From a virus (Duplodnaviria > Caudoviricetes), in IMG/VR virus record IMGVR_UViG_3300049142_000128, positions 1-64,000 of that record: DNA of 64,000 nucleotides, one strand, 5' to 3'. This document shows, one piece after another, positions 6,926-33,805 of the stretch. A program made the translations under genes and the position numbers. The notes beneath the pieces are model-generated. The model ran no database searches. It had not been told where the DNA came from and saw nothing but the letters and a program-made list of their open reading frames with translations. Numbering within the stretch: the stretch's first letter is position 1; each line of letters starts with the position of its first letter.

Positions 6926-9865
6926 TCATGACGCCGCCTGCTCGGCGGCGAGGATCTGGTCGAGCGTCGGGAGCGGAGTGCGCTGCGCGCGGGCCGGCGG
7001 GCGGCGGGTCCGGCCGAGGCGGCGATCGAGCTCGGCGACCGCGTCGGCGTTCTTCTTCGAGATGCGGTGCCGGTCCAGCTGGAGCGCGCGGCCGTCGTGG
7101 CCGATCTCGCGGGAGATCCACGCCTTCGGCCAGCCGCGCATGACCATCCAGTCGATGAGCTTCCACGTCGGGCCGGCCGGGACGAGCCCTCCGTGAGGGC
7201 CGGCGCCGGTGTGCTCCTGCGCTGCTTCGACGGTGAGAGCGAGGATCCGCCGCTCGCGCTCCGGGTCGATGCGGGAGACATGCCCGTACGCGATGTTGAT
7301 GATCGACTTCGGGTTGACGCCCGCCGCGCGAGCGAGCGGCTTCTGCCCTGCGCCACGGGCGATCAGCTTCTGCAGGTGCTCGCGCGCGGGCCCGGCATCG
7401 ACCAGGTCGGTAGCGATCTCGCCGCTCTGCCGGCGGCGCTCGTAGTCCGCGTTCGCGTCGCAGCACGAGTCGCACCGACAGCCGCGGGCGTAGGCCCACC
7501 GGTGCCCGTGCTCGACGTCGTCCCGGACGGCACGGTCCGCCAGGTCGGGCCGAACGGTGACCTCCCACTCCCAGCCCGGCACCTGCTCGAGCGCGGCGAC
7601 CCGGTCCGGCGCCAGCTCGCCGCGGCGGTAGGACTGGCGCTGGACGGTGCACCAGCGCGACAGGTTCAGCTCGTGGTCCGGCAGCTGCTCGACATGCTCG
7701 TACGGGACCCGCGCCGTATGGGCTCGGGTGACGTACTGGCGCAGCGCGAGGTAGCCGAGCCGCCAGGCGGTCTCCGCCTTCTCCCAGCGCAGCGGCTGCC
7801 AGTCGTGGCGGCCGACCAGCTGCAGCTCCAGCTCGAGGGCGGGGTGGAGTCGGCCGGTGTAACGGCGGCGCCGCACGGCGGTGAGCCACGCGCCGAGCGG
7901 GAGGCCGTCGTCGTGGTGGTAGTCGTGCGGCGGGTTGAGGTCGTGCTTCCACGCGCCGTACTCAGCGAGCGCGTCGACCATGCGCGCGTCGTCGTCCGGG
8001 ACGAGCCCCCACCGCCAGCAGGGAAGCTGCTCAGCCGCGCGCTCGAGGTGGCCGGGGAGCTGGCCCCGACGCCGGCGGGCCGCGGTGTCGACGGCGAACT
8101 CGGCGAGGCTGCGGTACGCGCGGGCGCCGGGCTCGGCGCTCCCGGTCCAGCCCGGGGTCTCTCGCAGCCACTCCCACCGTTCGAACTCCGACACGCGCGC
8201 CGCGCTGTGCCGGCGCTTCCACGCCGCGGCCGCCCGCCACCACGCCACCTCACGGGCGTTCCACGCCCAGCCGGGCAGCTTCTCCAGCGCTTCGACGCGG
8301 GCCGGTTCCAGCGTTCCCTGCTTGTAGAGCGTGCGCTGCCGGACGACCCAGGCGCCGAGCGCGACTCCTTCTCGACGGACCTGCTGGCTTGGGCGCGCCA
8401 CCCCGTGCTCGCGCGCGTGCGCCACGAGCAGGTCGTAGCAGTGCCACCACGATGCGCCGGTGCGGTCGAGCGCACGCAGCATCCAGCGGTCGATGTCGAG
8501 CCCGTCGGGCAGCTCGACGTGGAGCTGCGGCCCGTACCGCTGGTCACCCCGTCCGGGGCGGTAGCCGCCGATGCCGCCCGGTGTGGTGCGGGCGCGCAGT
8601 CGCGCGGCGAACCGCGGGTCCATCGACGCGAGCGCGCGCAGGGTGATCCAGACGTGGCGCCAGGCGGTGCTCGACAGCTCGGTGTCCTCGTCCAGGCCGC
8701 TGCCGGTGGTGACGGCGAGGACGACGCGGCCGCGTTCCTTCCCGGGAGCCAGGCGCATCGCCCGGCCGACGGCCTGCACGATGTCGACGGGTGAGGTGCG
8801 CGGTTCGGCGAACACCACGGTGTCCACCGCGGGGACGTCGACGCCCTCGGTGAGGATCCGCGCTGACGCCAACACAGCCGCGTTTCCTGGGGGTGGGTCA
8901 GCGAGCCGCGTGAGGGCGGCGGCGCGCCGGTGCGCGCCGTGCCGGGCTTCGAGGTGCTCGGCCTGTATCCGGACGCCGTCGGCAAGTTGGAGCCTGTCGA
9001 GGTGCCTTGCGAGCTCGCGGGCGTGGTTCACGCGGGAGTGGAAGGTCAGCAGGCGTCGGCCGCCGTCGCGGATGGCCGCGAGCACGGCGTGCATTGCGCC
9101 CGGGGCGTCGGCCGGCCCGGCGCCGGGCCGGACGGCGAGGACCTCGACGTCGTAGTCGACGAGCCGGCCCGCCGCGACGGCGTCGGCGAACGTCGCCCGG
9201 TACACGGTTGGCCCGAAGAGGGCCTCGTCGTCCAGGGACAGCGGCGCGGTGACATCGTCGAGGTCCGCGTCGGCCGTCCAGGCCGCTGCCTCGACCGGGG
9301 TAGCGGTGAGGAAAACGCGGCGCCGGGCCGGGAGGGCGTCATCGTCGAGGACGGCGCGGAACTCGCGACGCGGCTGGCCTGCGAGCCGATGCGCCTCGTC
9401 GCACACGATGAGGTCCGCGACGACGCCGGCGCGCTGCAGCGCTGCCGCGACGCGGGGCGCGGAGTGGTAGGTGGAGACGATCACGCGGGCGGGTCCGCCG
9501 CCGGCGAGGAACGCGTGGATCGCGCGCTCCGACGTGGAGGCGGTCACCGAGGCACGAGCCCAGGCAGGCAGCTCGAGGTCGTCGAGTGCGACGGCTCGAC
9601 CCGACCCCGGATCCGAGCACACGATCATCGACTGGTGATGCCAGGAGGTGTCCGAGCGCCACGCCAGCAGGGTCTGTGGGACCAGGGCGAGGCTCGGCAC
9701 GAACACGACGGCGAGGCGGGCACCGAGCTGCTGGGCGAACCAGCGCCCGAGGAGCGTCTTCCCGGAGCCGCAGGGCATCACGACAACTCCGCGGCCGCGC
9801 TTGCCGAGCCGCTCGTGCAGGCGGTGCAGCGCCTGGCGCTGAAGGGCGTGCGGTTTGCCCGTCAT
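6926..9865 (-). CDS. SF2 DEAH helicase with helicase-associated (HA) repeats and C-terminal Cys/HTH region
   Basis: Walker A MPCGSGKT, CDEAH, TATP, LTEGVDVP, QAVGRAMR; repeated W...Y..L / LGAWVVRQR...G.L...R...LE..PGW.W units; C-terminal GCRCDSC and HTH-like segments. Confidence 0.85.
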   Translation of the reverse strand: MTGKPHALQRQALHRLHERLGKRGRGVVVMPCGSGKTLLGRWFAQQLGARLAVVFVPSLALVPQTLLAWRSDTSWHHQSMIVCSDPGSGRAVALDDLELPAWARASVTASTSERAIHAFLAGGGPARVIVSTYHSAPRVAAALQRAGVVADLIVCDEAHRLAGQPRREFRAVLDDDALPARRRVFLTATPVEAAAWTADADLDDVTAPLSLDDEALFGPTVYRATFADAVAAGRLVDYDVEVLAVRPGAGPADAPGAMHAVLAAIRDGGRRLLTFHSRVNHARELARHLDRLQLADGVRIQAEHLEARHGAHRRAAALTRLADPPPGNAAVLASARILTEGVDVPAVDTVVFAEPRTSPVDIVQAVGRAMRLAPGKERGRVVLAVTTGSGLDEDTELSSTAWRHVWITLRALASMDPRFAARLRARTTPGGIGGYRPGRGDQRYGPQLHVELPDGLDIDRWMLRALDRTGASWWHCYDLLVAHAREHGVARPSQQVRREGVALGAWVVRQRTLYKQGTLEPARVEALEKLPGWAWNAREVAWWRAAAAWKRRHSAARVSEFERWEWLRETPGWTGSAEPGARAYRSLAEFAVDTAARRRRGQLPGHLERAAEQLPCWRWGLVPDDDARMVDALAEYGAWKHDLNPPHDYHHDDGLPLGAWLTAVRRRRYTGRLHPALELELQLVGRHDWQPLRWEKAETAWRLGYLALRQYVTRAHTARVPYEHVEQLPDHELNLSRWCTVQRQSYRRGELAPDRVAALEQVPGWEWEVTVRPDLADRAVRDDVEHGHRWAYARGCRCDSCCDANADYERRRQSGEIATDLVDAGPAREHLQKLIARGAGQKPLARAAGVNPKSIINIAYGHVSRIDPERERRILALTVEAAQEHTGAGPHGGLVPAGPTWKLIDWMVMRGWPKAWISREIGHDGRALQLDRHRISKKNADAVAELDRRLGRTRRPPARAQRTPLPTLDQILAAEQAAS

Positions 9866-12926: not shown

Positions 12927-14219
12927 ATGGCCTGGGCCGAGAAGATCCCCGGCAGCGGGAAGTACCGCGGCCGGTACCGCGACGCCACAGGACGCGCCCA
13001 GACCCTCGACGAGGGGCCGTTCACACAGCCAGCCGAAGCCCGTCGCCGCGCCTCAGTCGCCGAGGACAACGCCAGGCGACGTCCGGGGCGCCTCATGCCA
13101 CGCGGCGGCCGCATCACCTGGGCCGACTGGGCGGACATCTGGTGGCCTCTGCGCGCTGTCGAGCCGGGCACGCTCCAGCGGGACATGTCCCGGCGCAAGA
13201 CGCACCTCGAGCCGAAGTGGGGCACCACGCGCCTCGACGCGATCCGCCGCGACGCAGTCCAGGAGTGGGTCAACGACCTCTACACGAGCGGCATGGCCGC
13301 GGCGACGGTCGAACGCTGCTACCGGCTCTTCTCGGCGTCGATGAAGGCTGCGGTCGTGGCTGAGCGGCTCGACGCCACCCCTTGCGTGAAGATCGACCTG
13401 CCCAGGAAACCGCCGGCCGACGAGCGCTACCTGACCCACGAGGAGGTCGAGGCGATCACGCACTTCCTCGACCCGCAGGCCGCGCTGCTCGTGTGGTTCC
13501 TCGTTGGCACCGGCGTGCGGTGGGGCGAGGCCGTCGGCGTCCACCTGCACCGCGTGCACCTCAAGCACGCGCGCCTCGACATCCACGAGGTGTGGGACCA
13601 GCGGACCGGCGAGATCAAGCCCTACCCGAAGGGACGCCAGAAGCGCTCCGTGCCGCTCTCGGCGAGCCTGACCGCGAAGCTCAAGACGCACGTGAACGGC
13701 TTGCGCAGGTCCGGATCATGCGGGTCGCCGCACCGAAGAGGCTCGCACTGCCAGGCGCCGCTGCTCTTCCCGAACACCCGAGGGAAGGTCCTCGACTACA
13801 ACAACTTCCGCAGCAACGAGTGGGAGCGCGTCGTAGGGAAGTGGACCTGGGCAGCGCCGGACGGCACCACGTTCCGAACCGCCTCCGCCGCGCGGAAGAA
13901 GCTCGGCGAGGACGTCGAGCTGACGAGGCGATGGAAGGCCGGCCACGTGGATATCGGTCCGGTCACGATCCATGACCTACGTCACACATATGCGTCCTGG
14001 CTCATCCAAGACGGCGTGTCCCTCGAGGAACTTCGCGACCTCCTCGGCCACGAATCCGTGAAGACAACCGAGCGATACGCGCACCTCGCGCAGAGCCAGT
14101 GGAGCAGGGTGCGGCAGGCCCTCGACGCGAAACCTGCCCCAGATCTGCCCCAAGTCGATCAACTGGCGATCATGCGTGATCGAAAAGCACACCGTCTGCG
14201 CAGGTCAGCAGGGGTGTAA
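12927..14219 (+). CDS. int: Tyrosine integrase
   Basis: Catalytic R (TGVRWGE), HDLRH, LLGH, TERY; N-terminal arm-binding segment; att core immediately downstream. Confidence 0.95.
   Translation: MAWAEKIPGSGKYRGRYRDATGRAQTLDEGPFTQPAEARRRASVAEDNARRRPGRLMPRGGRITWADWADIWWPLRAVEPGTLQRDMSRRKTHLEPKWGTTRLDAIRRDAVQEWVNDLYTSGMAAATVERCYRLFSASMKAAVVAERLDATPCVKIDLPRKPPADERYLTHEEVEAITHFLDPQAALLVWFLVGTGVRWGEAVGVHLHRVHLKHARLDIHEVWDQRTGEIKPYPKGRQKRSVPLSASLTAKLKTHVNGLRRSGSCGSPHRRGSHCQAPLLFPNTRGKVLDYNNFRSNEWERVVGKWTWAAPDGTTFRTASAARKKLGEDVELTRRWKAGHVDIGPVTIHDLRHTYASWLIQDGVSLEELRDLLGHESVKTTERYAHLAQSQWSRVRQALDAKPAPDLPQVDQLAIMRDRKAHRLRRSAGV
14134..14152 (+). repeat. Integrase arm-type sites, left arm (CTGCCCCA x2)
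   Basis: CTGCCCCA at 14134-14141 and 14145-14152, 11-bp period. Confidence 0.7.
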
Positions 14220-14932: not shown

Positions 14933-15937
14933 GTGAACGAGGCGGACGAGCTGCTCCAGCCGCCGATCCGGCCCATGACCGCCCGGGCGGCCTCAGCGTT
15001 GCCGCCGCCCGAGCGGGCCGCGCTCTACAGCTTCGAGCCCAAGTGGGACGGGTTCCGCTGCCTCGCGTTCCGGACCACGGAAGGCGGCCTCCTGCAGTCG
15101 CGACAGCAGCGCCCGCTGACGAGGTACTTCCCCGAGGTGCTCGCCGGCCTCGTCGAGCAAATGCCGCCCGGCACGGTGCTCGACGGGGAGCTCGTCATCG
15201 CCCGCGGCGGGCGGCTCGACTTCACCGCGCTCCAGCGCCGCATCCACCCGTCGGCGATGCACGCCGCACGCCGCGGCGAGGTCGCGCCGGCCTGCCTGGT
15301 CGTGTTCGACGTCCTCGCCTCGGCCGGGGTGGACCTTCGAGGGCGTCCGTACTGGGCGCGCCGTGAGCACCTCGAGCTGCTCCTCCGCGACGCACGACCG
15401 CCGCTGGCGCTCACCCCGGCCACCCGGGACCTCGCCGCTGCCCACGCGTGGATGACCGAGCACGCCGGCGCCGGGATCGAGGGCGTCGTCGTGAAGGACG
15501 TCCGCCGCGGCTACCGGCCGGGCCGGACCTCCTGGGAGAAGGTGCGCAGCCGCGCAACCACCGACGCGGTCGTCGGCGGCGTCCTCGGCCCGCTCGACGA
15601 GCCGCACGCGCTCGTTCTCGGACGACCCGACGGCGGCGGTCGGCTACGCGTAGTCGGCCGGACCGGGCCGCTCCCGGCCGCCGCGCGGCGGGAGGTCGGG
15701 GCGCTCCTCGAGCCGCCGCAGGGCCGGCACCCGTGGCCGAAGCGGATCTCGTCGTCGAGGTTCGGACAGCTCCCGCCGGAGCCCGTCTTCTACACCCAGG
15801 CGGAGCCGCGTCTGGTCGTCGAAGTGGATGCCGACGTGTGCTGGGAGCAGGGACGGTGGCGGCACCCCACGGTGTTCCGGCGCCTGCGTGTCGACCTGCG
15901 CGCGGACGACCTCGCCACGACGAGTAGGGCCGGGTAG
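14933..15937 (+). CDS. ATP-dependent DNA ligase (LigC-like)
   Basis: Motif I EPKWDGFR, LDGELV, VFDVL, EGVVVK, C-terminal OB fold (EPRLVVEV...RWRHP). Confidence 0.9.
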   Translation: MNEADELLQPPIRPMTARAASALPPPERAALYSFEPKWDGFRCLAFRTTEGGLLQSRQQRPLTRYFPEVLAGLVEQMPPGTVLDGELVIARGGRLDFTALQRRIHPSAMHAARRGEVAPACLVVFDVLASAGVDLRGRPYWARREHLELLLRDARPPLALTPATRDLAAAHAWMTEHAGAGIEGVVVKDVRRGYRPGRTSWEKVRSRATTDAVVGGVLGPLDEPHALVLGRPDGGGRLRVVGRTGPLPAAARREVGALLEPPQGRHPWPKRISSSRFGQLPPEPVFYTQAEPRLVVEVDADVCWEQGRWRHPTVFRRLRVDLRADDLATTSRAG

Positions 15938-15976
15938 CAACCTGGTCTCGCAGGGCGGAACGGCATAGTTCCGGGC

Positions 15977-16357
15977 GTGCCCGACTACAACCTGCAGGAC
16001 AAGACCACCGTCGGCATCCTCGACGTGCAGTTCAGCCCGCTCTCCACGCCCCTGGTCGCCTGGTACGTCTGGATCGAGGAGGACGACTCCGAGCAGATCG
16101 AGAAGCGGCCCGTTCTTGGTGTCCTCCTCCGCCATAAGATCAACCCCGGAGGCGACATCACCGGCTCTCGCGCCGAGATGGCCGTGCAGTTCGAAGACAC
16201 AGCCGAGGTGTGCGCCGCGAACGACAGCGCGCTACTTGGCTCGAACGAGGCTTTCGTTGGGATCTACCCAGCCAGCGCGGATGAGCCGACACAGTCGATA
16301 CGTGACACCGCCAGCCGACTCCGCAGGGAGATGAAGCGGCAGGAGAAGTCGGGCTAG
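15977..16357 (+). CDS. Hypothetical protein (lower GC)
   Basis: 126 aa acidic ORF with visibly lower GC than its neighbours. Confidence 0.6.
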   Translation: MPDYNLQDKTTVGILDVQFSPLSTPLVAWYVWIEEDDSEQIEKRPVLGVLLRHKINPGGDITGSRAEMAVQFEDTAEVCAANDSALLGSNEAFVGIYPASADEPTQSIRDTASRLRREMKRQEKSG

Positions 16358-16398
16358 CAACTCTCGAACAGAGGGCACCACGCCCGACGAGGCAGCGA

Positions 16399-17109
16399 TC
16401 AGTACCGAGCGCTCGGGCGCCCGATCGACCGGGGCGCCCGGCGCCGCTGCTGGGGGCCCGTGTTCCGGTTCCTCCGCGCGGCGAGCGCCCGTTCCCGCGG
16501 ATCGGCCGGCGGCGCCTCCTCGACGACGCCAGCACGGCGGAGACCGTCGAAGAGCGGCCGCATGCGCTCTCCGATCTGCTGCATCCAGGCGGCCCCGGCC
16601 TCCCCGAGCGCGGCCATCACTTCGCGCACCGGTGCGAACGCCTGGTCGAGCTGCCGCGCGAGCTCCGCGCTCTGCACTCGCTGCCGCTCGGCAAGGGACT
16701 CCATGCGCAGCTGCACCGCAGCTCGCTGCTCGTCGGTCGTCGCGGCGAGCAGCGCGCGCTGGGCGGCGCGCCAGTCCGCGGCGAGGTTTCCGGTCGAGCG
16801 TGGGAGGCGGAACTCCGGCGGCCCCGGATCCCAGGTCACCTGCAGGAGGCCGAGAGGCGACACCAGCACCGGTGGCGACGGGATCGGCGGCTCCTCGTCC
16901 TCGAACGCCTCCGGTGGGATCACCCCGGGCGGGAAGTCTTCCGGCCGGTCCCAGGGCTCCCGGTATCCGACGAGCTCGTCGACGCGGCTCGCGTGCCACG
17001 CCTGCTGGCACCCGTCGCCGCAGAAGTCGTCGGACGGGGAGTCCTGCAGCGGGCCGCCGCACTCGTGGCAGCCGCCGACCGCCTCGTCGATCGCGTCGAG
17101 GATGTCCAC
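16399..17109 (-). CDS. Hypothetical protein with N-terminal zinc ribbon
   Basis: CHECGG...FCGDGCQQAW. Confidence 0.6.
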   Translation of the reverse strand: MDILDAIDEAVGGCHECGGPLQDSPSDDFCGDGCQQAWHASRVDELVGYREPWDRPEDFPPGVIPPEAFEDEEPPIPSPPVLVSPLGLLQVTWDPGPPEFRLPRSTGNLAADWRAAQRALLAATTDEQRAAVQLRMESLAERQRVQSAELARQLDQAFAPVREVMAALGEAGAAWMQQIGERMRPLFDGLRRAGVVEEAPPADPRERALAARRNRNTGPQQRRRAPRSIGRPSARY

Positions 17110-17164
17110 GCGCTCATCCTCCCGCGGGGCGGCGACAACGACCCCGCTCCCGAGTCACCCCACG

Positions 17165-18271
17165 TCAGGTCACGATCCGCTCGGCGGGCTCCTCGGCCGA
17201 GTCGAGCCAGACCGTGCTGGTTCCGGTCGGGGTGACGGTGAGTCCGTACCGCGCCCGGTGTGGCCGCCCGTGCGCGGCCCACGCGCGGTGCGCAGCGAGG
17301 ACCTCGTCTCCGATCGACCGCGAGCCGCTCTGGTGCGCGGTGCCGTTGCTGTCGATCTCGACCCAGGAGCCGTCGTCGGCGCGCAGGACGCGGGTCCCCC
17401 GGTCCGGCAGGCGCAAGGACTGCACGATGCCAGGGACCCGGAGAGCGAGCTGGAAGCCGAAGTCGGCGTCGTCGAGATCGTCGAGAAGCTCGGGATCGAA
17501 CTCGGCGGCGACGGGGCGCATCGCTGTCCGGTCGAACCAGGCGAGGCTCTCACCCAGCGTGCGGAACGGGTCGGCGGCGAACGGTCGAAGCCACATGAAG
17601 TGGCCTGGGACGGGGTGGAAGCGGCCCACGAGGTTGCCGGCGCCGTCACGCTGGGCGGCGATCAAGGCGCTCGAGGTGGCGGCCCGCAGATCGGCCACGA
17701 GCCGGCCGGCGGCGCGGAGTTGCCGCACCCACGCCCCGGGGACGGCGGGAACGGCGCAGGTGGCGATGATCCGGTCGAACGGTGCCCGCGCGGGCACGCC
17801 GGCCGCACCGTCCCCGGCCACGAGTGTCGGGGCGAAGCCCACCGACTTCAGCGCATCACGTGCCGCGTCGACGAGGTCCGGGTCGATGTCGATGCTGGTC
17901 ACGGCATCGCTGCCGAGGCGGTGGCAGAGCAGCGCCGCGTTGTATCCGGTCCCGGTCCCGATCTCCAGCACCGTGTGGCCGGGCGCGACGTCGAGCATGC
18001 CCAGCATGCGCGCCATCAGGCTGGGCCGCGTCGAGGAGCTGGTCGGCACGATCTGCCCGGACTCGGGCACGTGCGCGACCTGGGTGGTCAGCGATTCGTC
18101 GCGGTAGACCGCGTCGGCCACATCGTCGCGGGGAGATCCGTCGGCCGCGAACGCGACCGGCACGAACACGTGCCGGGGGACGTTCTCAAACGCGGCGCGC
18201 CAGCCCGGGTCGAGCACACCCTGATCAGCGAGGTTGGCCGCCAGCCGCCGGGCCTGCTGCTGCCAGATCAT
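17165..18271 (-). CDS. Protein-L-isoaspartate O-methyltransferase-like RiPP tailoring enzyme
   Basis: AFENVPRHVFVP, SSSTRPSLMARML, VLEIGTGTGYNAALL, PFDRIIATCAV; extended C-terminal domain; coupled to the ATP-grasp gene. Confidence 0.9.
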   Translation of the reverse strand: MIWQQQARRLAANLADQGVLDPGWRAAFENVPRHVFVPVAFAADGSPRDDVADAVYRDESLTTQVAHVPESGQIVPTSSSTRPSLMARMLGMLDVAPGHTVLEIGTGTGYNAALLCHRLGSDAVTSIDIDPDLVDAARDALKSVGFAPTLVAGDGAAGVPARAPFDRIIATCAVPAVPGAWVRQLRAAGRLVADLRAATSSALIAAQRDGAGNLVGRFHPVPGHFMWLRPFAADPFRTLGESLAWFDRTAMRPVAAEFDPELLDDLDDADFGFQLALRVPGIVQSLRLPDRGTRVLRADDGSWVEIDSNGTAHQSGSRSIGDEVLAAHRAWAAHGRPHRARYGLTVTPTGTSTVWLDSAEEPAERIVT

Positions 18272-19242
18272 CGGGTCTCCTCCCCCGCGAGCAGCGCCGC
18301 GAATGCCGCCGCGATCGGCTGGTCGGCCTCGTCCTCCAGCCACAGCCACTGGCCGTTCGGGTTGCACTCGAGGAACCGCCAGCTGCCGTCCGGTTCGATC
18401 ACGAAGTCGAACGCGCCGTACAGCAGGCCGAAGTGATCCAGGTAGGCCGACATCCCGAGCTGCACGTCCTGCGGGACCGTCACGGTCTCGTAGCGGAGGT
18501 TGCGGTAGTCGGCCCGCCAGTCCTCGCGCCCGGCGTCGGAGTCGGCGATCACGGCGACGGCGAACGCGGTTCTGCCGACCATCGTCACCCGCGCATCGTG
18601 GGCCTTCGGCACGCGCTCCTGGAACAGGTGCGCCGTGGCGGCGAGCTGCTCGGCGTCGATCTGGTCCGGATCGACGGTCGTGGTGAAGACCGAGGTGACG
18701 GTGTCGCCGTCGTCGAGCAGCATCGAGGAGAAGGTCTTGCAGACCAGCGGGCGGCCGATCTCCGCCGCGAACGCGCGCACCGCGTCGACGTCGTTGGTCA
18801 CGAGGGTGCGCGGCACCAGCAGCCCGACGTGCTCTGCCACGTCGAGCTGCAGGGGCTTGTACTCGGCCGGCGCGATCCGGGCGGGATGGTTCACCCAGGT
18901 CGCTGGCAGGGATGCGAGCACCCCGCCCACCCCGAGCTTGGCCTCGGTCAAGGCGAATGCCGCATCGCCGCTCTCCAGCCCGTGTGGGAGCCGGAACCGG
19001 GTGGGCCGGCGGTAGTAGACGGAGCGGACCTCGTCGAGCTCGACCGTCGCCGATGGGGTGCGGAGCCGGCCGCGCCACCGCCCCTCGGAGTTGCGGGCGT
19101 CGATCCGCATCTGGGTCGGGAAGTCGCCGGTGTCCATGCGGACGAACGGGACACGCCGATCCTTCAGGTGGGCCTCGACCAGGTCGGCGGTCGCGTCCTC
19201 GGGCGCGCTGAGCACGAGCACCGGCCCGTCGGGATCAGTCAT
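18268..19242 (-). CDS. ATP-grasp ribosomal peptide maturase (graspetide synthetase)
   Basis: SVYYRRP, KPLQL, PRTLVTND, FQERVPKAHDARVT, DWRADY, YGAFDF, FLECNPNGQW. Confidence 0.92.
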   Translation of the reverse strand: MTDPDGPVLVLSAPEDATADLVEAHLKDRRVPFVRMDTGDFPTQMRIDARNSEGRWRGRLRTPSATVELDEVRSVYYRRPTRFRLPHGLESGDAAFALTEAKLGVGGVLASLPATWVNHPARIAPAEYKPLQLDVAEHVGLLVPRTLVTNDVDAVRAFAAEIGRPLVCKTFSSMLLDDGDTVTSVFTTTVDPDQIDAEQLAATAHLFQERVPKAHDARVTMVGRTAFAVAVIADSDAGREDWRADYRNLRYETVTVPQDVQLGMSAYLDHFGLLYGAFDFVIEPDGSWRFLECNPNGQWLWLEDEADQPIAAAFAALLAGEETR

Positions 19243-19489
19243 CGACGTCGGTGTCGGTGACGGAATCGGTGGTGCGGTTGCCGTCGTTCACGGTCTCGCT
19301 GTTCGTGCGGTAGGTGTTCCTCGTCGAGGTCGTGTCGTGCTTCTTGGCCTCGATCGGCGTGGGCACGCCCAGCGTCGCGGCGAACGGTCGCAGCGGGCCG
19401 GGCCGGTTCGGCGCGAGGATCCGCACTCCACCTGGATCGCTCTGCTGGAGCAGCGCGGTGGGCGGGAACAGCGGGTCGGACGTGGCCAT
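19235..19489 (-). CDS. Graspetide RiPP precursor peptide (84 aa)
   Basis: Leader with LRPF; Thr/Ser-rich then Asp-rich core around a central NDG: HDTTSTRNTYRTNSETVNDGNRTTDSVTDTDVDD; directly upstream of the ATP-grasp gene. Confidence 0.85.
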   Translation of the reverse strand: MATSDPLFPPTALLQQSDPGGVRILAPNRPGPLRPFAATLGVPTPIEAKKHDTTSTRNTYRTNSETVNDGNRTTDSVTDTDVDD

Positions 19490-19616
19490 GAAGGTAGCCC
19501 TCCGGGTGAGCGGTTGGTGGTCTGAACGTAGCGATCGGTGCGTCAGGCGTTGGGCTGTTCGCGAAACACGCGGCCGGGCGCCGCCGGCGGAGGTACACCG
19601 GCGACGCCGGCCACGA

Positions 19617-19772
19617 TCAGGGGGGAGCGCTTCGCCGGTCTCGCTCGTCTGCGTCGACCAACCGCAGCAGCGAGCGCGCGGCGTCGGGATCTCCAACCAC
19701 CACACCGGACGACGTGACGACCAACCCGGGCGCCTCGTCGCCCTCGAACTCCCACCATCCGCCCGGGATCAT
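19617..19772 (-). CDS. Small hypothetical protein upstream of the RiPP genes
   Basis: MIPGGWWEFEGDE...; same strand, near-coupled to the upstream ORF. Confidence 0.4.
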   Translation of the reverse strand: MIPGGWWEFEGDEAPGLVVTSSGVVVGDPDAARSLLRLVDADERDRRSAPP

Positions 19773-19774
19773 GA

Positions 19775-19918
19775 TCAGACCCACGGCGTCTCCCGGCGGC
19801 CGCGGATCTCGTTTTCCTTCTCGATCCGCCGGCGGCGATCCCGCGCGCCCATGACGAGCACTGCGACCATCATGCCGCCGCCGACGACGAGCGCCACGAC
19901 CACGTATTCCCGGCTCAT
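19775..19918 (-). CDS. Small single-TM membrane protein
   Basis: YVVVALVVGGGMMVAVLVMG followed by a basic tail. Confidence 0.5.
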   Translation of the reverse strand: MSREYVVVALVVGGGMMVAVLVMGARDRRRRIEKENEIRGRRETPWV

Positions 19919-20205
19919 CGGACCCGGCCGACCGCTGCCGAGGCGTACTCGGCGAGCGGGCACGGCCAGACCTTCCGACCCGCTTGCGGGCCCGCCGGGC
20001 AGATGCGGCAATGCCCGGTGCCGTCGTCGGTGTGCTGAGCGAGCATCCGCGCAAGCGCAGCCGGCTGCCCACGGAAAAGGTCCGTGAACGCCCCTGCGAG
20101 CGGCGATATCGACGCCGCGACGATCGGCCGGCCAGCCAGCTCCGATGCGGGCTGGTTCGCAGATCTGCTCATCTCTCCGTCACATGCCTCGTCGGATGGG
20201 ATCAC
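19915..20205 (-). CDS. Small Cys/His protein, first gene of the divergent operon
   Basis: HTDDGTGHCRIC...WPCPL; start uncertain. Confidence 0.5.
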   Translation of the reverse strand: MIPSDEACDGEMSRSANQPASELAGRPIVAASISPLAGAFTDLFRGQPAALARMLAQHTDDGTGHCRICPAGPQAGRKVWPCPLAEYASAAVGRVR

Positions 20206-20339
20206 CGGCCGGCGCGGGCACTGGGGTTCGCAACCGCGCCGGCCGGGACATTCGGGGGCCGCCAGATCGGCGACAACCAGGAGTGTTCCGCCGGGACAGC
20301 AGACTGGGAGGGGATGAGATCGGGGCTGTCAAGGGGAGG

Positions 20340-20369
20340 ATTCGGGGAGACTTTGAAGCCTCCCCGAAT
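20340..20369. promoter_or_regulatory. Perfect inverted repeat, candidate operator of the Xre-TPR regulator
   Basis: ATTCGGGGAG-N10-CTCCCCGAAT between divergent operons. Confidence 0.6.
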
Positions 20370-20435
20370 GTCAGCCTGTACCCGTCCAGCTACGCGCTGT
20401 GTGACGATGACGCGCGCCTACTGGGGAGGGCGACC

Positions 20436-21746
20436 GTGGCCGAGAATGATCAACTCAGGGCGGCGCGTGAACGCACCGCGTCGCCCGCCCATCCAGGCGA
20501 GGGACTGAGCAGGCAGGAACTCGCGCAGCTCGTCAACGCCTACATCTGGGACACCCACGATAAGCGGGTCGAGGTCGACGCCAACTACATCGGCAAGCTC
20601 GAGCGAGGCGGCATCCGCTGGCCCAGCCAGCTCTACCGCGAGGCCCTCCGCGCCGTCCTGAACGTCAGCACCGACGCCGCCCTCGGGTTCGTCAACCCCC
20701 GGCGGACCGTGGTACAGAGGCCCGTGGATCGCAAGCAGTTCCTCCGCGGCGCGGCCTTCCTCGGCGCCGGCGCCATGTCCCTTCCCCCGATCGTCGCCCT
20801 GCTCGAGGGCAGCGAACCCACACCGGTGCCCCCCAAGGTCAGCGCCCGGGACGTCGAGCAGATCCACACGGCCGCCCGGGTCTTCGCGACCTGGGACCAC
20901 ACCTACGGCGGCGGTCTCGCCCGCGAGGCTGTGCAGGCGCAGCTGCGCTGGTCTGCCGGGCTCCTCGAGTCCACGGTCCCGGAGAAGCTCCGGGCCCCGC
21001 TGCTCTCCGCGGTCGGCTACCTGGCCCACACGACCGGCTTCATGGCCTTCGACGCCTACGCCCACGACGACGCGCAGCGCATCTTCCGGTACGCGCTCAC
21101 CTGCGCCGAGGAGGCCGGCGACTGGCACCTCCGCGCGAAGATCCTCTCCAGCATGGCGCGGCAGGCGATCTGGATCGGCAGGCCCGACGACGGACTCACG
21201 CTGGCCGAGTTCGCGCTGGTGCGCGCCGACCGCCTCTCCGCCACCGAGCGGGCAATGCTGCACGTGGCCCACGCCCGCGCCCTCGCGAAGATGGGCCGAG
21301 TCGGGGACACCCTCACCGCCGTCGGCGCGGCCGACGACGAGTTCGCACGCCGCAACCCAGCATCCGACGCCCCGTGGATGGCCTACTACGACGCCGCGCA
21401 GCACGCGGGCGACTCCGGCCACGCCCTGTTCGACCTGGCCGTGATCGGCCGCTCTCGGGAGGAAGCCCGCAGCCGGCTCGCGGCCGCCGTGGCGGGCCAC
21501 GGCCCGGCCTACGCCCGCTCCCGCGCGATCGCGCAGACGAAGCTGGCCAGCCTCACCATGCTGGCCGGGGACCCGGTCGAGGCCGCCACGATCGGCCGCG
21601 AGGCCGTGGAGACGGCCGGGACGCTGCGGTCCCGACGAGCCGCGGACGATCTCCGGGAGCTGGGCCGCTACGCCGGACGGCACCCGAAGGTCGCCGAGGT
21701 CGTCGAGCTCCGGCACCGGATCAGCCGGACCGTCATCGCCTCGTGA
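20436..21746 (+). CDS. XRE-HTH transcriptional regulator with TPR-like helical C-terminal domain
   Basis: NDQLRAARE...LSRQELAQLVN...YIGKLERG.IRWP; Ala-rich helical repeats; GTG start after GGGAGGG. Confidence 0.8.
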   Translation: MAENDQLRAARERTASPAHPGEGLSRQELAQLVNAYIWDTHDKRVEVDANYIGKLERGGIRWPSQLYREALRAVLNVSTDAALGFVNPRRTVVQRPVDRKQFLRGAAFLGAGAMSLPPIVALLEGSEPTPVPPKVSARDVEQIHTAARVFATWDHTYGGGLAREAVQAQLRWSAGLLESTVPEKLRAPLLSAVGYLAHTTGFMAFDAYAHDDAQRIFRYALTCAEEAGDWHLRAKILSSMARQAIWIGRPDDGLTLAEFALVRADRLSATERAMLHVAHARALAKMGRVGDTLTAVGAADDEFARRNPASDAPWMAYYDAAQHAGDSGHALFDLAVIGRSREEARSRLAAAVAGHGPAYARSRAIAQTKLASLTMLAGDPVEAATIGREAVETAGTLRSRRAADDLRELGRYAGRHPKVAEVVELRHRISRTVIAS

Positions 21747-22630
21747 GCAGCGCACCCGAGCGCGCGGCGCTCGACCTCCTCGCGGCGGCCTGCGCGCAGG
21801 TCGGGCTGGACATGGCGGGAGCCGAGATCATCCGGCTCGGTGAGAACGCGATCTTCCGGCTCCCCGGAGGTGTCGTGACCCGGATCGCGCGGCCCGGCCA
21901 GCTCGCCGCCGCGACGCGAGAGGTTCGGATCGCTCGCTGGTTCGCCGATCAAGGTGTGCGCGCGGTGCGCGCGCTGGACAGCATCGCGCAGCCGCTGAAC
22001 GTCGAGCAGCATCCGGTGACGTTCTGGGAGGAGCTGCCGCCGCACCGGCACGGCACCGTGCTCGAGGTCGCCGACGCCCTGCGCCAGCTGCACGGGCTGC
22101 CGCTCCCCGACTGCGATCTGCTCGGCCCCCTCGACCCGTTCGTCCGGCTGACCGAGCGCATCGAGGGCGGCGCCACGCTGCCCGCCGATGATCGGGCCTG
22201 GCTGCGGCAGCACCTCGCCGCGCTGCGCCAGCGCTACCAGACCCTCCCGCCGGGGCTGCCGCATCGTGTGGTGCACGGCGACGCGTGGGGCGGCAACATC
22301 GTCACCACCCACGACGGCCGGACCCTGCTCCTCGACCTCGAACGCTGCTCCGTCGGGCCGCCCGAGTGGGACCTCGTGTCGATCGCGCTCCGGCGGGGCT
22401 CGTTCGGCTGGCTCTCTGACGCCGACTACCAGGCCTTCGCGAGCCGGTACGGCCACGACGTGACGACGTGGTCTGGCTACGAGCTGCTCCGCGACATCCG
22501 CGAGCTGCGCATGGCGCTCTACCGCGTTCAGCGCGCCGCCGAGCACCCCGGCGAGCGTGGCGAGGCGCAGCTCCGGGTCGCAAGCCTTCGAGGACGGCAC
22601 GGCCCGCGACCGTGGGCATGGGGCCGCTGA
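21743..22630 (+). CDS. APH/choline-kinase-like phosphotransferase
   Basis: Brenner motif VVHGDAWGGN, LLDLE, GPPEWDL; GTGA coupling to the regulator. Confidence 0.85.
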   Translation: MSSAPERAALDLLAAACAQVGLDMAGAEIIRLGENAIFRLPGGVVTRIARPGQLAAATREVRIARWFADQGVRAVRALDSIAQPLNVEQHPVTFWEELPPHRHGTVLEVADALRQLHGLPLPDCDLLGPLDPFVRLTERIEGGATLPADDRAWLRQHLAALRQRYQTLPPGLPHRVVHGDAWGGNIVTTHDGRTLLLDLERCSVGPPEWDLVSIALRRGSFGWLSDADYQAFASRYGHDVTTWSGYELLRDIRELRMALYRVQRAAEHPGERGEAQLRVASLRGRHGPRPWAWGR

Positions 22631-23448: not shown

Positions 23449-24282
23449 ATGACCGCCGCCCCCGCCGCCCGCACCTTCTACGTCGGCGCCCCCGCACCCA
23501 AGTGGCTCACCCTCACCACCGTCCCCCAGTTCGTCTCCCATACGCGCCTCCGCACCCGCCGCAACCTCCCCCGCGCCGTCGCCCGGTGGGCACTCGACTC
23601 CGGCGGCTTCACCGAGCTCTCCCGCCACGGCCGGTGGACCATCACCCCCGCCGCGTACGCCACTGCCGTGCGCCGCTACCGCGACGAGATCGGCGGCCTC
23701 GACTGGGCCGCCCCGCAGGACTGGATGTGCGAGCCCGAGCAGCTCGACAACACCGGGCTCACCGTCGCCGAGCACCAGCGCCGCACCGTCGACAACTACC
23801 TCGAGCTGCGCGCCATCGCCCCCGATCTGCCGATCATCCCCGTGGTGCAGGGCTGGACCGTGGGCAGCTACCGCCGCTGCGTCGAGCTGTACGCGGCCGC
23901 CGGCGTCGACCTGCGCGCCGAGTCCGTCGTCGGCATCGGCTCCGTCTGCCGCCGGACGAACCCGGTCACGGTCGCGCTCATCGTCGACGAGCTGCGGGCC
24001 CTCGGCCTGTCCGGCCTGCACGGGTTCGGGGTGAAGTCCGACGCCCTCGCCCTGGTCGCGGGGCAGCTGTCCTCGGCCGACTCGCAGGCGTGGTCGAGCG
24101 CCGCACGGGCGCGCCGCGAGCCCTGCTCGGAGGACTCGGCCCGCCGGGACTGCCGCAACTGCATGCACTACGCCCTCGAGTGGGTGGATCAGCTGCGCAC
24201 GGCGATCCGCTGGCACGACGTGCCGACGGCTCTGCTGCCGGCGCCGCGGAACGCTGTCGACGAGCTCACCTTGTCCGCGTAA
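23449..24282 (+). CDS. TGT-fold base-exchange transglycosylase (DpdA-like deazaguanine modification family)
   Basis: TGT catalytic motifs in order: ALDSGGF, APQDWMC, PVVQG, GIGSVC, LHGFGV, SADS. Confidence 0.75.
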   Translation: MTAAPAARTFYVGAPAPKWLTLTTVPQFVSHTRLRTRRNLPRAVARWALDSGGFTELSRHGRWTITPAAYATAVRRYRDEIGGLDWAAPQDWMCEPEQLDNTGLTVAEHQRRTVDNYLELRAIAPDLPIIPVVQGWTVGSYRRCVELYAAAGVDLRAESVVGIGSVCRRTNPVTVALIVDELRALGLSGLHGFGVKSDALALVAGQLSSADSQAWSSAARARREPCSEDSARRDCRNCMHYALEWVDQLRTAIRWHDVPTALLPAPRNAVDELTLSA

Positions 24283-25928: not shown

Positions 25929-26468
25929 TCAGGAGAGAGCGGCCGGTAGGAGCAGCGCAGCCGCGAGCACGAGCCCGCGGAAGATCCACTGCTCCGCCGG
26001 CCCGGCCGTCCGAAACCGCAACCAGTACGGCCACACGACCCGTACTCGGAACGGCCAGAACAGGAAGTCGAGGGACGTCTTTGTCGGGACGTCCCCCAGT
26101 ACGCCAGCGAGGTAGCCGAGCGTCCCGAATGCCGCCGTACACACGGCAGCGAGCGGGACGAGCCAGTACGCGGACAGAACGCCGAGCAGTACGCCCCACA
26201 GCAGGGACGCCGCGATCGTGTGGGTGAGCCCGCGGTGCGCCATCCCCACCACGCGTACCGACAGCAGCCGTACCGCCCAACACACCCCCCAGGAGAACGG
26301 CGGCAGGCACTTCGCCGCCGTCGCGTTCGGGTGGTCGACGTCGGGCACGTAGGCCGACGCCGCTCCGACGACCGCGAGCACGGGAACCGCGGTCACCGGG
26401 AGATCGAGCACCGCGGCGGCGCCGAGCGCAGCGACCGCGCCCGTCGCGAAGTGGGTGCGGCCCATCAT
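25929..26468 (-). CDS. Membrane metal-dependent hydrolase (YdjM-like)
   Basis: MMGRTH, PDVDHP, HRGLTHT, LGDVPT motifs; hydrophobic segments. Confidence 0.8.
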   Translation of the reverse strand: MMGRTHFATGAVAALGAAAVLDLPVTAVPVLAVVGAASAYVPDVDHPNATAAKCLPPFSWGVCWAVRLLSVRVVGMAHRGLTHTIAASLLWGVLLGVLSAYWLVPLAAVCTAAFGTLGYLAGVLGDVPTKTSLDFLFWPFRVRVVWPYWLRFRTAGPAEQWIFRGLVLAAALLLPAALS

Positions 26469-26481
26469 CGGGCCTCACCCC

Positions 26482-26627
26482 GCAGGATCGGCAGGGTTCG
26501 CAGGGTTGACGAGGGGGTCACACACCCTGCAGCCGGCGGAACCGCTGGTAAGACCCCCCTTCTGGAATCCTGCCAGGGTCCACGGCAGGGTCCGAACAGG
26601 GTTCGAGCAGGGTCGCGGTGCAGGGTC
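26482..26627 (-). repeat. clt-like locus: 8-bp TraB-recognition-like direct repeats (consensus RACCCTGC on the minus strand)
   Basis: Plus-strand copies (G/C/A)CAGGGT(C/T) at 26573, 26585, 26596, 26607, 26620 (11-13 bp period) and at 26482 (GCAGGATC), 26491, 26500; one inverted copy at 26523. Confidence 0.8.
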
Positions 26628-27804
26628 ATCCGACGCCCACAGCCTCTCGCTCGGGCTCCTTCTCAGCCTCGTCGTCGAGGAGCGCGAGGAGCCGCTCGGC
26701 GACCGTCTGGCGGCAGCCGTAGCGCTTCCGCACCTGATACGCCGTCGGGGGCTCGTCGAGCTCGGCGGCCCACTTCCGGAAGTCGTTCTCGCGGTCTGTG
26801 TCGACCGGGACGAGGCGCCGCGGCGGCGTACCGCCGGGCCGGTCCGCGTTCGGCCGCTGCTCGGTACCCGACTCGGTACGGGCGTCGGTACGGAACGTCG
26901 GGGCGTGCTGCTCGACCGGTGCCTCGTCGGTACGGGGCATCGGTACGGGCGGCGTACCAGCGTGCCCGTTCAGCCAGAACAGCGTCAGCCCGCACGCGTC
27001 CAGCAGGGTGAGGAACCGGCCGAGCGTTCCGTCCCGCCGGGACGCCTGACGGGCAGTACGGCGTGCGAGCCGCTCGGCCTCCGATCCGGACCACGCCGTG
27101 CGCGGGTCGGTGATGCCGTGCGCGATCGAGTAGCGGCGGGCGAGCCAGGTGCGAACCGGGAACGCACGCCAGCGCGCGGACGAGAACAGCGCGCCGGTGT
27201 CATCGACGCGACCGTCCTGCTTGCGCTGCAGGTGGACCGCGCGGCGGGTGTGCATCCCCCACAGCCACGGCTGCAGCGCGGAGAACAGGGCGAACACGAC
27301 GGCGCTGTCGGTCGGTGCCCAGCCGTCGGCGAAATGGGCGTAGTTGATCCCGGCCACCGCCAGCGCGAGCCCGTACGCCGCGACCCGTCGCCGGGATGCG
27401 GTGGCCGTGTCGCCCGCGAGCAGCGCGCCGTGGGCGTACCAGGCGACGGTGTTCGCGATCGACTCGACGGTCGCGGCGAAGCCGACCGCCACGACCGCGC
27501 GCACGACCCACGGCCACGTCGGCTCGGTGAGGTGGGCGAAGGCGTAGCCGACCTGCCCGAACATCGCGAACACGGTCACCGCGGCGAGCGGCGCGACCGG
27601 GCGCAGAGCGGCCACGCGGGCCGAGCAGGCCCTCCACCGCGCCGATCGGGCCGTACGCCGCAGGGCCCGCTGTGCCGCCTTCTCCGCCCGGCGCCGTGCC
27701 CGCGCGGCCGCCTTCTCGGCGCGGCGCTGGCGACGCAGCTCGGCGAGGGTGCGCAGCCAGTCCAGCCGGCCGCCGCCGCGCTCGCGCTCGTCGACGTCGG
27801 TCAC
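26626..27804 (-). CDS. SpdB2-like (DUF2637-type) spread membrane protein
   Basis: N-terminal Arg/Ala coiled coil, about four TM helices, C-terminal HTH-like PTAYQVRKRYGCRQTVAERLL. Confidence 0.7.
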   Translation of the reverse strand: MTDVDERERGGGRLDWLRTLAELRRQRRAEKAAARARRRAEKAAQRALRRTARSARWRACSARVAALRPVAPLAAVTVFAMFGQVGYAFAHLTEPTWPWVVRAVVAVGFAATVESIANTVAWYAHGALLAGDTATASRRRVAAYGLALAVAGINYAHFADGWAPTDSAVVFALFSALQPWLWGMHTRRAVHLQRKQDGRVDDTGALFSSARWRAFPVRTWLARRYSIAHGITDPRTAWSGSEAERLARRTARQASRRDGTLGRFLTLLDACGLTLFWLNGHAGTPPVPMPRTDEAPVEQHAPTFRTDARTESGTEQRPNADRPGGTPPRRLVPVDTDRENDFRKWAAELDEPPTAYQVRKRYGCRQTVAERLLALLDDEAEKEPEREAVGVG

Positions 27805-32983: not shown

Positions 32984-33805
32984 TCATCGCGGTTGCCCCT
33001 CGAGCGCGATGACCGCGCCGTCGGGGGCGTCGTAGACGACGTTGACCTGCGTGGTTCCGTCCGGTGCCTCGCGCCAGTCGCGGGACGACCAGCCCTCGCG
33101 GAAGATCACCGAGAGCCGGTGGTCGGCGATGCCGCCGCCGTCGGACTGGAAGAAGACGTGCGCCTTCGCTCCGGCCGGGCCTTCGGCGACGAGGGACACC
33201 CAGGCGCGGGCAAGGACCGCGCTGGCGCGGCCGACGGGGAGGATGCGGCGGAACGAGCCCGAGCCGCGGACGGGGATGTTGTCGAGCATGTCGAGGTCCT
33301 TCGGGTGAGCGGCGGGAGCGACAGGAGCAGCGGGAGCTGAGGGCGTCCGCGCGTAGGCCGGGCGGGCGAAGCCGACGATGTTGGCGAGGCGTCGCTTCCG
33401 GGCGACCATGCCGCCGTTGCGCTGGTCCCCGGATGCGGTTCCGGCGGTGTTGCCCTCGATCGTGACCAGCGTTCCGCCGGGCTCGACGCCCTCGACCAGG
33501 CCGACGTGGTTGACCGGGTTCTTGTTGCCGGGGAACTTGAAGAACACCAGGTCACCGGGCTGCGGGTTGCGGGTGTGCCACTGCCCCCGGCTCTGGTACC
33601 AGTCCCTCATCAGCACGGTGCTCGCCGTCTTCGGGACGAGTGGGGCGCAGCCGGCCTCGGTGAGCACCCACCACACGAACTGGGCGCACCAGGCGACGCC
33701 GTCCCAGCCGTAGGCGCGGCCGTACTTCTGCCGGTTGCTGCCGTGCGGCTGCTCGACGGTGCCGAGCTCGCCGCGGGCGACCTCGAGGACGCGGGCGACG
33801 GTCAC
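32984..33805 (-). CDS. Endolysin with CHAP domain
   Basis: AWCAQFVWW (catalytic Cys), HVGLVE, TIEGNT. Confidence 0.9.
   Translation of the reverse strand: MTVARVLEVARGELGTVEQPHGSNRQKYGRAYGWDGVAWCAQFVWWVLTEAGCAPLVPKTASTVLMRDWYQSRGQWHTRNPQPGDLVFFKFPGNKNPVNHVGLVEGVEPGGTLVTIEGNTAGTASGDQRNGGMVARKRRLANIVGFARPAYARTPSAPAAPVAPAAHPKDLDMLDNIPVRGSGSFRRILPVGRASAVLARAWVSLVAEGPAGAKAHVFFQSDGGGIADHRLSVIFREGWSSRDWREAPDGTTQVNVVYDAPDGAVIALEGQPR

Follow-up and report, generated by a model that had tools for sequence, protein, structure and literature searches.

Graspimiditides, the group 13 graspetides, are peptides made on the ribosome and modified after translation (RiPPs), four of which have been characterized: fuscimiditide, amycolimiditide, albusimiditide and SsfA (PMC13001092). 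All four are stem-loops with two to five Thr-Asp omega-esters, and in each a homologue of protein isoaspartyl methyltransferase (PIMT) makes an aspartimide at the loop Asp-Gly, working solely on the cross-linked peptide (PMC13001092). One survey collected 962 precursors from 1,083 three-gene clusters, all in Actinomycetota, and described core features common to the class: a conserved His, a Thr/Ser-rich stem, a loop Asp-Xaa (mostly Asp-Gly) and an Asp/Glu-rich stem (Choi et al., bioRxiv 10.1101/2023.06.21.545981). Further surveys have reported 1,326 and 1,432 clusters. The clusters typically consist of three genes without a protease or exporter, and the class is thought to rely on host functions. 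No biological function is known for any graspimiditide and no activity has been demonstrated; according to a 2026 review, the foremost challenge still open is to tie aspartimidylated RiPPs to a function. Here we describe a three-gene cluster of this kind at positions 17165–19489, on the minus strand, of a window comprising bases 1–64000 of one 77,127-bp IMG/VR virus record (IMGVR_UViG_3300049142_000128), on which all positions are numbered. We consider it likely that a temperate phage of the siphovirus type, from a Pseudonocardia-like actinobacterium, carries the cluster as cargo, and that the cluster is an intact graspimiditide cassette maintained by selection. The RiPP class and its chemistry are known; what is new is that the core subfamily, from Pseudonocardiaceae, is uncharacterized and that the genomic context appears not to have been reported before.

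The genes run in the order precursor, ligase, methyltransferase. An 84-aa precursor peptide, identified by translation (19235–19489, minus strand), is followed by a 324-aa ATP-grasp ribosomal peptide maturase (18268–19242, minus strand; TIGR04187, PF21068) and a 368-aa PIMT-like O-methyltransferase with a RiPP-type C-terminal domain (17165–18271, minus strand; PF01135, TIGR04188 alignment). The ligase ATG overlaps the precursor stop codon (ATGACTGA), the methyltransferase ATG overlaps the ligase stop codon (ATGA), and a Shine-Dalgarno GGAGG can be read in the sequence at 19499–19503 (minus strand), 9 nt 5' of the precursor ATG. The three genes are translationally coupled. Overlapping stop and start codons at both junctions accompany a gene order that recurs in almost every one of 80 bacterial loci inspected. 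The initial annotation of this stretch, made from its letters alone, had proposed a coupled precursor, ATP-grasp ligase and PIMT-like enzyme of the fuscimiditide and amycolimiditide type with no adjacent protease or exporter. All three open reading frames (ORFs) are indeed present and overlapping, the class assignment is borne out by the ligase score (below), the gene order and the precursor features, and none of the neighboring window genes examined encodes a protease or exporter adjoining the triad. Nor does the cassette contain or adjoin an immunity gene or a leader protease, and a tblastx comparison of the upstream (19490–20500) and downstream (15901–17170) flanks with all loci, searching for a conserved fourth gene, returned only short GC-rich noise.

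On these features the triad is classed as a graspimiditide cluster of the fuscimiditide/amycolimiditide kind. The ligase matches TIGR04187 ("ATP-grasp ribosomal peptide maturase," SAV_5884 type; cut-off 350 bits) with 402.2 bits (E 1e-120; profile 1–311/312), and with 401.9 bits when the search was rerun on the full genome record. It carries the PF21068 MvdD pre-ATP-grasp domain, and its structural relatives in the PDB (MdnC 5IG9 at E 5e-45, 9BOU, 7M4S and 7MGV) align along its length. It retains 45/45 invariant columns of a 13-sequence alignment, including K169, K213, R218, E292 and N294. The methyltransferase matches PF01135 (PIMT) with 108 bits (cut-off 20.3). PIMT structures align to its residues 64–210 only, and it has a C-terminal domain of ~150 residues that is absent from repair PIMTs. 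The invariant P-T-S-S-S, the VLEIGTGTGY S-adenosylmethionine (SAM) motif and D130 are retained, as are R229, P280, S302, W331 and W355 in the C-terminal domain, so that both domains share invariant residues with ten cluster-linked homologues. Because the catalytic and SAM-binding invariants are kept, both enzymes look active.

The precursor ends in HDTTSTRNTYRTNSETVNDGNRTTDSVTDTDVDD, a Thr/Ser-rich stretch followed by V-N-D-G-N and by five Asp within the last ten residues; the translation thus agrees with the donors, turn and acidic tail first described for it. A conserved leader precedes the core, which starts at a conserved His and passes through Thr/Ser-rich, N-D-G loop and Asp-rich C-terminal segments. 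All four class-defining core features are therefore present (upstream His, Thr/Ser-rich donor segment, Asp-Gly loop, Asp-rich acceptor segment). The peptide is 89% identical to its 84-aa counterpart in L093, the nearest bacterial locus, and 74% identical to those of L009 and L089, and the 84-aa precursors of the loci with the closest ligases have a common leader and a near-identical core in a subfamily alignment. In the wider subfamily, core residues H1, T3, T6, G20, D25 and D33 are invariant and D19 and D29 are each Glu in one locus (alignment read by eye). The invariant Thr and Asp positions suggest that three or more esters surround the Asp-Gly loop. We also tried to derive the ester connectivity from conservation, and no pairs could be assigned, the spacing being insufficiently symmetric. 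A phmmer search of the precursor against the solved graspimiditide structures (7LIF, 8DYM) gave chance matches only, and the core is unlike both the Amycolatopsis type found in Amycolatopsis albidoflavus (L028) and the Streptomyces types of other loci. The precursor is best described as a divergent Pseudonocardiaceae leader/core type.

The cluster can be set beside four kinds of described system. It resembles the characterized graspimiditide clusters (fuscimiditide ThfABM, amycolimiditide AmdABM, albusimiditide GsaABM and SsfA) in its gene order of precursor, TIGR04187-type ATP-grasp enzyme and PIMT-like methyltransferase with a C-terminal domain, in the absence of a protease or exporter, in its core features and in its actinobacterial lineage. 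It differs from them in that its core belongs to a Pseudonocardiaceae subfamily that includes none of the four characterized peptides, its precursor is not recognized by TIGR04186, and its location is the genome of a phage. Microviridins (MdnA/MdnB/MdnC) and other graspetides have homologous ATP-grasp enzymes, as the MdnC match indicates, and leader-guided side-chain macrolactonization; microviridin clusters, however, encode a pair of ligases together with an acetyltransferase and an ABC transporter, and their products, from cyanobacteria and Bacteroidota, are tricyclic cage-like protease inhibitors without an aspartimide. The lanthiphages are actinobacterial clusters for class I lanthipeptides with anti-phage activity; they work inside the cell and are enriched both on prophages and on plasmids. 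They have a PF01135-type methyltransferase and usually no exporter, a likeness of functional analogy only, because they make LanB/LanC thioethers rather than ATP-grasp esters, and anti-phage activity has been demonstrated for them and for no graspetide. Prophage-borne RiPP and bacteriocin clusters and the graspetides of Porphyromonas gingivalis integrative and conjugative elements (ICEs) are further cases of a small ribosomal-peptide cluster as mobile-element cargo. The ICE systems, reported in a 2026 preprint as grasp-with-SPASM clusters previously unrecognized on mobile elements, differ in having type I secretion and in belonging to Bacteroidota. The graspimiditide literature searched, including the graspimiditide survey, makes no mention of a phage context, and no ATP-grasp, graspetide or microviridin cluster appears in a survey of the biosynthetic clusters that phages carry. 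Likewise, no description of a phage-encoded graspetide was found in the literature searched, a search outside which most subscription-journal papers fall.

The record, classed by IMG/VR as a linear virus and 89% complete according to CheckV, has a complete temperate tailed-phage layout in PHROG and Pfam scans. The triad is flanked on one side by genes for packaging, the virion and lysis (33–76.5 kb) and on the other by integration and immunity genes together with early genes (0–14.2 kb). The former, all on the minus strand, comprise the large terminase (74274–76508), the portal (67756–70446), a MuF/protease fusion just past the window end (64689–67760; L008 2690–5761), the major capsid protein (56695–58509), a head-tail adaptor and major tail protein, the tape measure (48848–51973), tail tip and fiber proteins (36–47 kb) and a CHAP endolysin (32984–33805). 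The latter comprise a tyrosine integrase (12927–14219), an ImmA-like protease with a repressor, a Cro-like XRE gene, a helicase, a DUF3799 exonuclease and SSB (23–625). The triad is ~17 kb from one record end and 58 kb from the other, and because phage genes flank it on both sides for tens of kilobases it lies inside the phage genome, in the central slot between the lysis genes and the integrase. The possibility that the cluster falls outside that genome, named at the outset as one that would refute a phage-borne pathway, is not borne out. The integrase sits mid-contig, the terminase and the early genes are next to the two record ends, and this gene order is of the virion type and not that of an excised provirus with host flanks. 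It is consistent with packaging of the cluster in the virion. Window GC is 71%–75% throughout, and GC and third-position GC (GC3) are uniform across the cassette junctions.

How the cassette arrived can be read from its closest relatives. The closest ligases (73%–87% identity) come from metagenomes and one Pseudonocardia metagenome-assembled genome, and the next tier (~63%) comes from Pseudonocardia and other Pseudonocardiaceae. At the nucleotide level, blastn gives 86.8% identity to L093 over window positions 17726–19535, where the L093 contig ends, 79% to L009 over 17179–19514 and 78% to L089–L092 over 17193–19508. Outside 17179–19535 (minus strand), the limits that we take for the mobile cassette, blastn detected no homology to the nearest bacterial loci. 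The Shine-Dalgarno sequence falls within the homologous stretch, which ends at 19514–19535. Because homology stops at the cassette edges, exactly three genes with their ribosome-binding site and ~25–45 bases of 5' leader moved between a Pseudonocardia-like chromosome and the phage. The bacterial loci lie in chromosomal surroundings with ArgS (arginyl-tRNA synthetase), nonribosomal peptide synthetase (NRPS), toxin-antitoxin and WhiJ-type regulator genes and have no phage genes in common with the window. Compared with L093, L009 and L089, dN/dS is 0.20–0.24 for the ligase, 0.26–0.28 for the methyltransferase and 0.25–0.30 for the precursor. These values (0.20–0.30 for all three genes) are summed over both lineages, with the phage branch not isolated, and they indicate purifying selection on all three genes since the split. 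As a separate observation, three of the nearest chromosomal relatives (L089, L090 and L092; 7658–9513) have a second, stand-alone PCMT-like methyltransferase (407 aa) and ORFs of 68 and 101 aa just upstream of the triad. This extra set adjoins NRPS genes and a transposase, and could be an imiditide/pamtide-type system beside the graspimiditide cluster.

Similar cassettes recur in other viral contigs. A pattern scan of IMG/VR built on the ligase alignment found 30 viral contigs with related ligases, 19 of them high-GC contigs with an adjacent methyltransferase, and the triad contigs have at least six core types. Several core types among ~19 viral contigs point to repeated independent capture and retention. 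A RiPP pathway inside a phage had been called unusual; the phage location stands, with phage genes on both sides, and the adjective needs qualifying in view of 19 further contigs with the ligase–methyltransferase pair. Most informative are two metagenomic viral contigs, L097 (53 kb) and L099, in which an endolysin, a helix-turn-helix (HTH) regulator, the precursor, ligase and methyltransferase, a reverse-oriented integrase and exonuclease VIII or RecT follow one another. The slot between lysis genes and integrase is the same as in the window, whereas the endolysin and integrase belong to other PHROG families, ligase identity is 47% and the core type is different. L097 and L099 represent a different phage lineage with the same slot, and they settle that phage carriage is no one-off. 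Triads are also next to lysis or tail genes in L110, L104 and L028. The slot accounts for the pattern seen in proviruses as well, since integration next to int leaves the cassette a few kilobases from one prophage end, followed by lysis and tail genes, just as in L110, L104 and L028. The Amycolatopsis albidoflavus JCM 11300 locus (L028 10001–20936), from an isolate genome, is itself a candidate prophage-borne cassette of a different core type; its triad is followed directly by prophage fiber, tail-fiber-assembly, endolysin, holin, minor-tail and tape-measure genes.

The biosynthetic reading of the locus is well supported, and the predicted chemistry is modeled on the characterized family. The ligase would bind the conserved precursor leader and link the side chains of Thr/Ser in the N-terminal core segment with those of Asp in the C-terminal segment, giving a stem-loop with several omega-esters. 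The methyltransferase, acting only on the cross-linked peptide, would methylate the loop Asp of N-D-G, and attack of the Gly amide on the methyl ester would then yield an aspartimide. Removal of the leader would be left to host proteases, with the cut probably falling behind the Lys-Lys ahead of the conserved His. The cassette as a whole would serve as a lysogenic-conversion module.

The genes next to the cassette bear on how it might be expressed. All genes at 20.1–25.9 kb are on the plus strand, and the next minus-strand gene upstream of the triad is at 25.9 kb. Because late-operon read-through is blocked by this orientation, the triad would need its own promoter in the ~950-bp region that is divergent with an XRE-type HTH regulator; we infer the transcription unit from gene orientation alone. 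The regulator (20436–21746, plus strand, start codon uncertain; phrog_10886, E 6e-56) has a long C-terminal domain and is followed by an APH-family kinase-like gene (about 21746–22630, plus strand; PF01636). Its atlas neighbors are actinobacterial XRE/HTH regulators, some with tetratricopeptide repeats (TPR), and its own C-terminal domain is possibly TPR-like. A tblastn search places homologues of the regulator upstream of the ligase, at a distance of 1–3 kb, in some ten bacterial loci and in the viral contigs L003 (2881–4374), L106 and L111, and L097 has a regulator of another family (phrog_5823) at the equivalent site (7816–9027). The nearest relatives of the cassette lack a phrog_10886 regulator, which places the regulator outside the transferred unit. 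It may control the cassette, and graspimiditide clusters may often include it as a fourth gene; the published surveys were filtered for three-gene clusters. In Streptomyces hazeniae (L065 6394–8951) the same kind of regulator–APH pair (48% and 55% identity) stands between two graspimiditide triads, here too in divergent orientation to one triad, and there may be a functional link between the pair and the peptide system. The intergenic region upstream of the precursor also contains a small ORF (19775–20011, minus strand) with a coding-like GC3 of 0.83 and one hydrophobic helix, which may or may not be a gene and for which no homologue was found in any related locus.

Several observations weigh against taking the locus for a working graspimiditide cassette of a phage. 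Against TIGR04188 ("ATP-grasp peptide maturase system methyltransferase") the methyltransferase scores 321.5 bits, under the 380-bit cut-off, in an alignment that runs end to end (profile 1–362/363) and with an architecture and gene linkage that do fit the family, and the precursor has no match in Pfam or NCBIfam, including the target-peptide model TIGR04186 (E <= 0.1). Both results would suit a locus that is no RiPP pathway, only a RimK-like ligase and an ordinary repair PIMT beside a chance small ORF. That explanation is effectively refuted by a ligase that exceeds the RiPP-specific TIGR04187 cut-off and has an MvdD pre-ATP-grasp domain, by the ~150-aa domain of the methyltransferase, foreign to repair PIMTs, and by the conservation of the small ORF and its core in every related locus (74%–89% identity, under purifying selection). 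A scan of 16.3–20.6 kb for promoters and terminators was empty, although its consensus is of the E. coli type and says nothing about an actinophage of 72% GC. The record is a linear contig derived from a metagenome or a genome, 89% complete and without terminal repeats, and many of the IMG/VR matches are provirus calls in which the triad is a few kilobases from the contig end and could be host flank; in several proviruses (L004, L006) it lies at or across that end, and in two contigs the end cuts the ligase gene. We nevertheless regard it as highly improbable that the cluster is not phage DNA at all, whether as host flank in a provirus call or through chimeric assembly (to a chimera alone we give a very small chance), given the virion-type arrangement, in which phage genes extend for tens of kilobases to either side, the uniform GC and GC3 over the junctions, and the independent repetition of the architecture in L097 and L099. 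We also considered, and set aside, that the accessory region (12.9–31 kb) or the cassette alone might have integrated as an element of its own: a search for att-like direct repeats that would mark either one turned up only short imperfect GC-rich repeats and a known promoter cassette.

If the cluster is phage DNA, it could still be a neutral passenger, picked up recently from the host chromosome by illegitimate recombination, of no phage-specific benefit and destined to be lost. Its nearest relatives are indeed chromosomal (79%–87% nucleotide identity), and the three genes alone were transferred. The phage-database search for the triplet that the initial annotation had proposed was productive in IMG/VR, but INPHARED, with 50,697 records of isolated phages, held no close homologue (just two ligases at 27%–30% identity), and a megablast of 14–23 kb against INPHARED phages gave no match. 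Nor does any graspimiditide have a known function. Even so, such a passenger seems quite unlikely in the face of a dN/dS of 0.2–0.3, a value that spans both lineages, the retention of all invariant residues, the occupation of the same slot by a different core type in the unrelated phage lineage of L097 and L099, and the repeated capture and retention implied by ~19 viral contigs with several core types. Among readings that give the peptide a use, a secreted or lysis-released protease inhibitor or antimicrobial that aids lysogen competition, in the manner of a bacteriocin, is the main alternative to our preferred one and is somewhat unlikely. Bacteriocins make up most prophage-encoded biosynthetic clusters so far, the P. 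gingivalis ICE preprint states that every graspetide of characterized function inhibits proteases, and the 2026 review suggests that aspartimides may serve as electrophilic traps or as an immunity state. The lack of an exporter, immunity gene and leader protease in or beside the cassette speaks against release, albeit as the norm for the class, and no graspimiditide has demonstrated activity. The initial annotation had taken the missing protease and exporter as a sign that the peptide may act intracellularly or be released at lysis; the absence is real, yet it does not discriminate between roles because it is normal for three-gene clusters. Our preferred guess, a tentative one, is that the peptide acts inside the lysogen against other phages or mobile elements. 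This is an argument by analogy with actinobacterial lanthipeptide clusters that have a PF01135-type enzyme and no exporter, are enriched in prophages and protect Streptomyces from phages intracellularly. In temperate mycobacteriophages, lysogens express centrally placed genes close to the integrase and repressor, and these defend against unrelated phages (PMC6426596). On the other side, the nearest chromosomal copies of the cassette occupy ordinary, variable neighborhoods. The more specific proposal, that these cassettes form a recurrent lysogenic-conversion module of temperate actinobacterial phages in the lysis-to-integrase slot, whose aspartimide-bearing peptide is an intracellular chemical defense against superinfecting phages or other mobile elements or a signal read by the adjacent HTH regulator, we hold to be unlikely.

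Other genes in the accessory region and beyond fill out the picture of this phage. An ATP-dependent DNA ligase (14933–15937, plus strand; PF01068 and PF04679) stands beside the integrase, between it and the triad, with two hypothetical genes between the DNA ligase gene and the triad. On the far side of the regulator, a DpdA homologue (23449–24282, plus strand; PF23859, E 3.5e-75) represents a 7-deazapurine DNA-modification transglycosylase and suggests that the phage DNA is modified. Between the lysis genes and the accessory region (25929–30905, minus strand) lie a 1034-aa FtsK/SpoIIIE-like protein (phrog_31069; the FtsK/TraB-like ATPase at 27801–30905), a 392-aa membrane protein and a YdjM-like protein. 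Residues 388–546 of the MuF/portal-associated and prohead-protease fusion (64689–67760) also match an "RNA ligase" PHROG, phrog_2659. A sortase (PF04203; 34459–35076, minus strand) and a protein with an alginate-lyase domain (PF08787; 36053–37504, minus strand) are found among the tail and lysis genes.

The finding extends the short list of phage-borne biosynthetic clusters to the graspetide class, and what it offers is an experimental handle on graspimiditide function rather than new chemistry. The clean boundaries of the three-gene unit explain the spread of such clusters among actinomycetes, and their recurrence in phages makes the case less singular and more general. A phage has little room for useless DNA, and an intact cassette under purifying selection in the slot of lysogenically expressed defense genes of temperate actinophages, with the arrangement repeated in a second phage lineage, is a testable lead. 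If the peptide does prove to be part of an intracellular defense or signal module, this would be the first biological role for a functionally orphan RiPP class.

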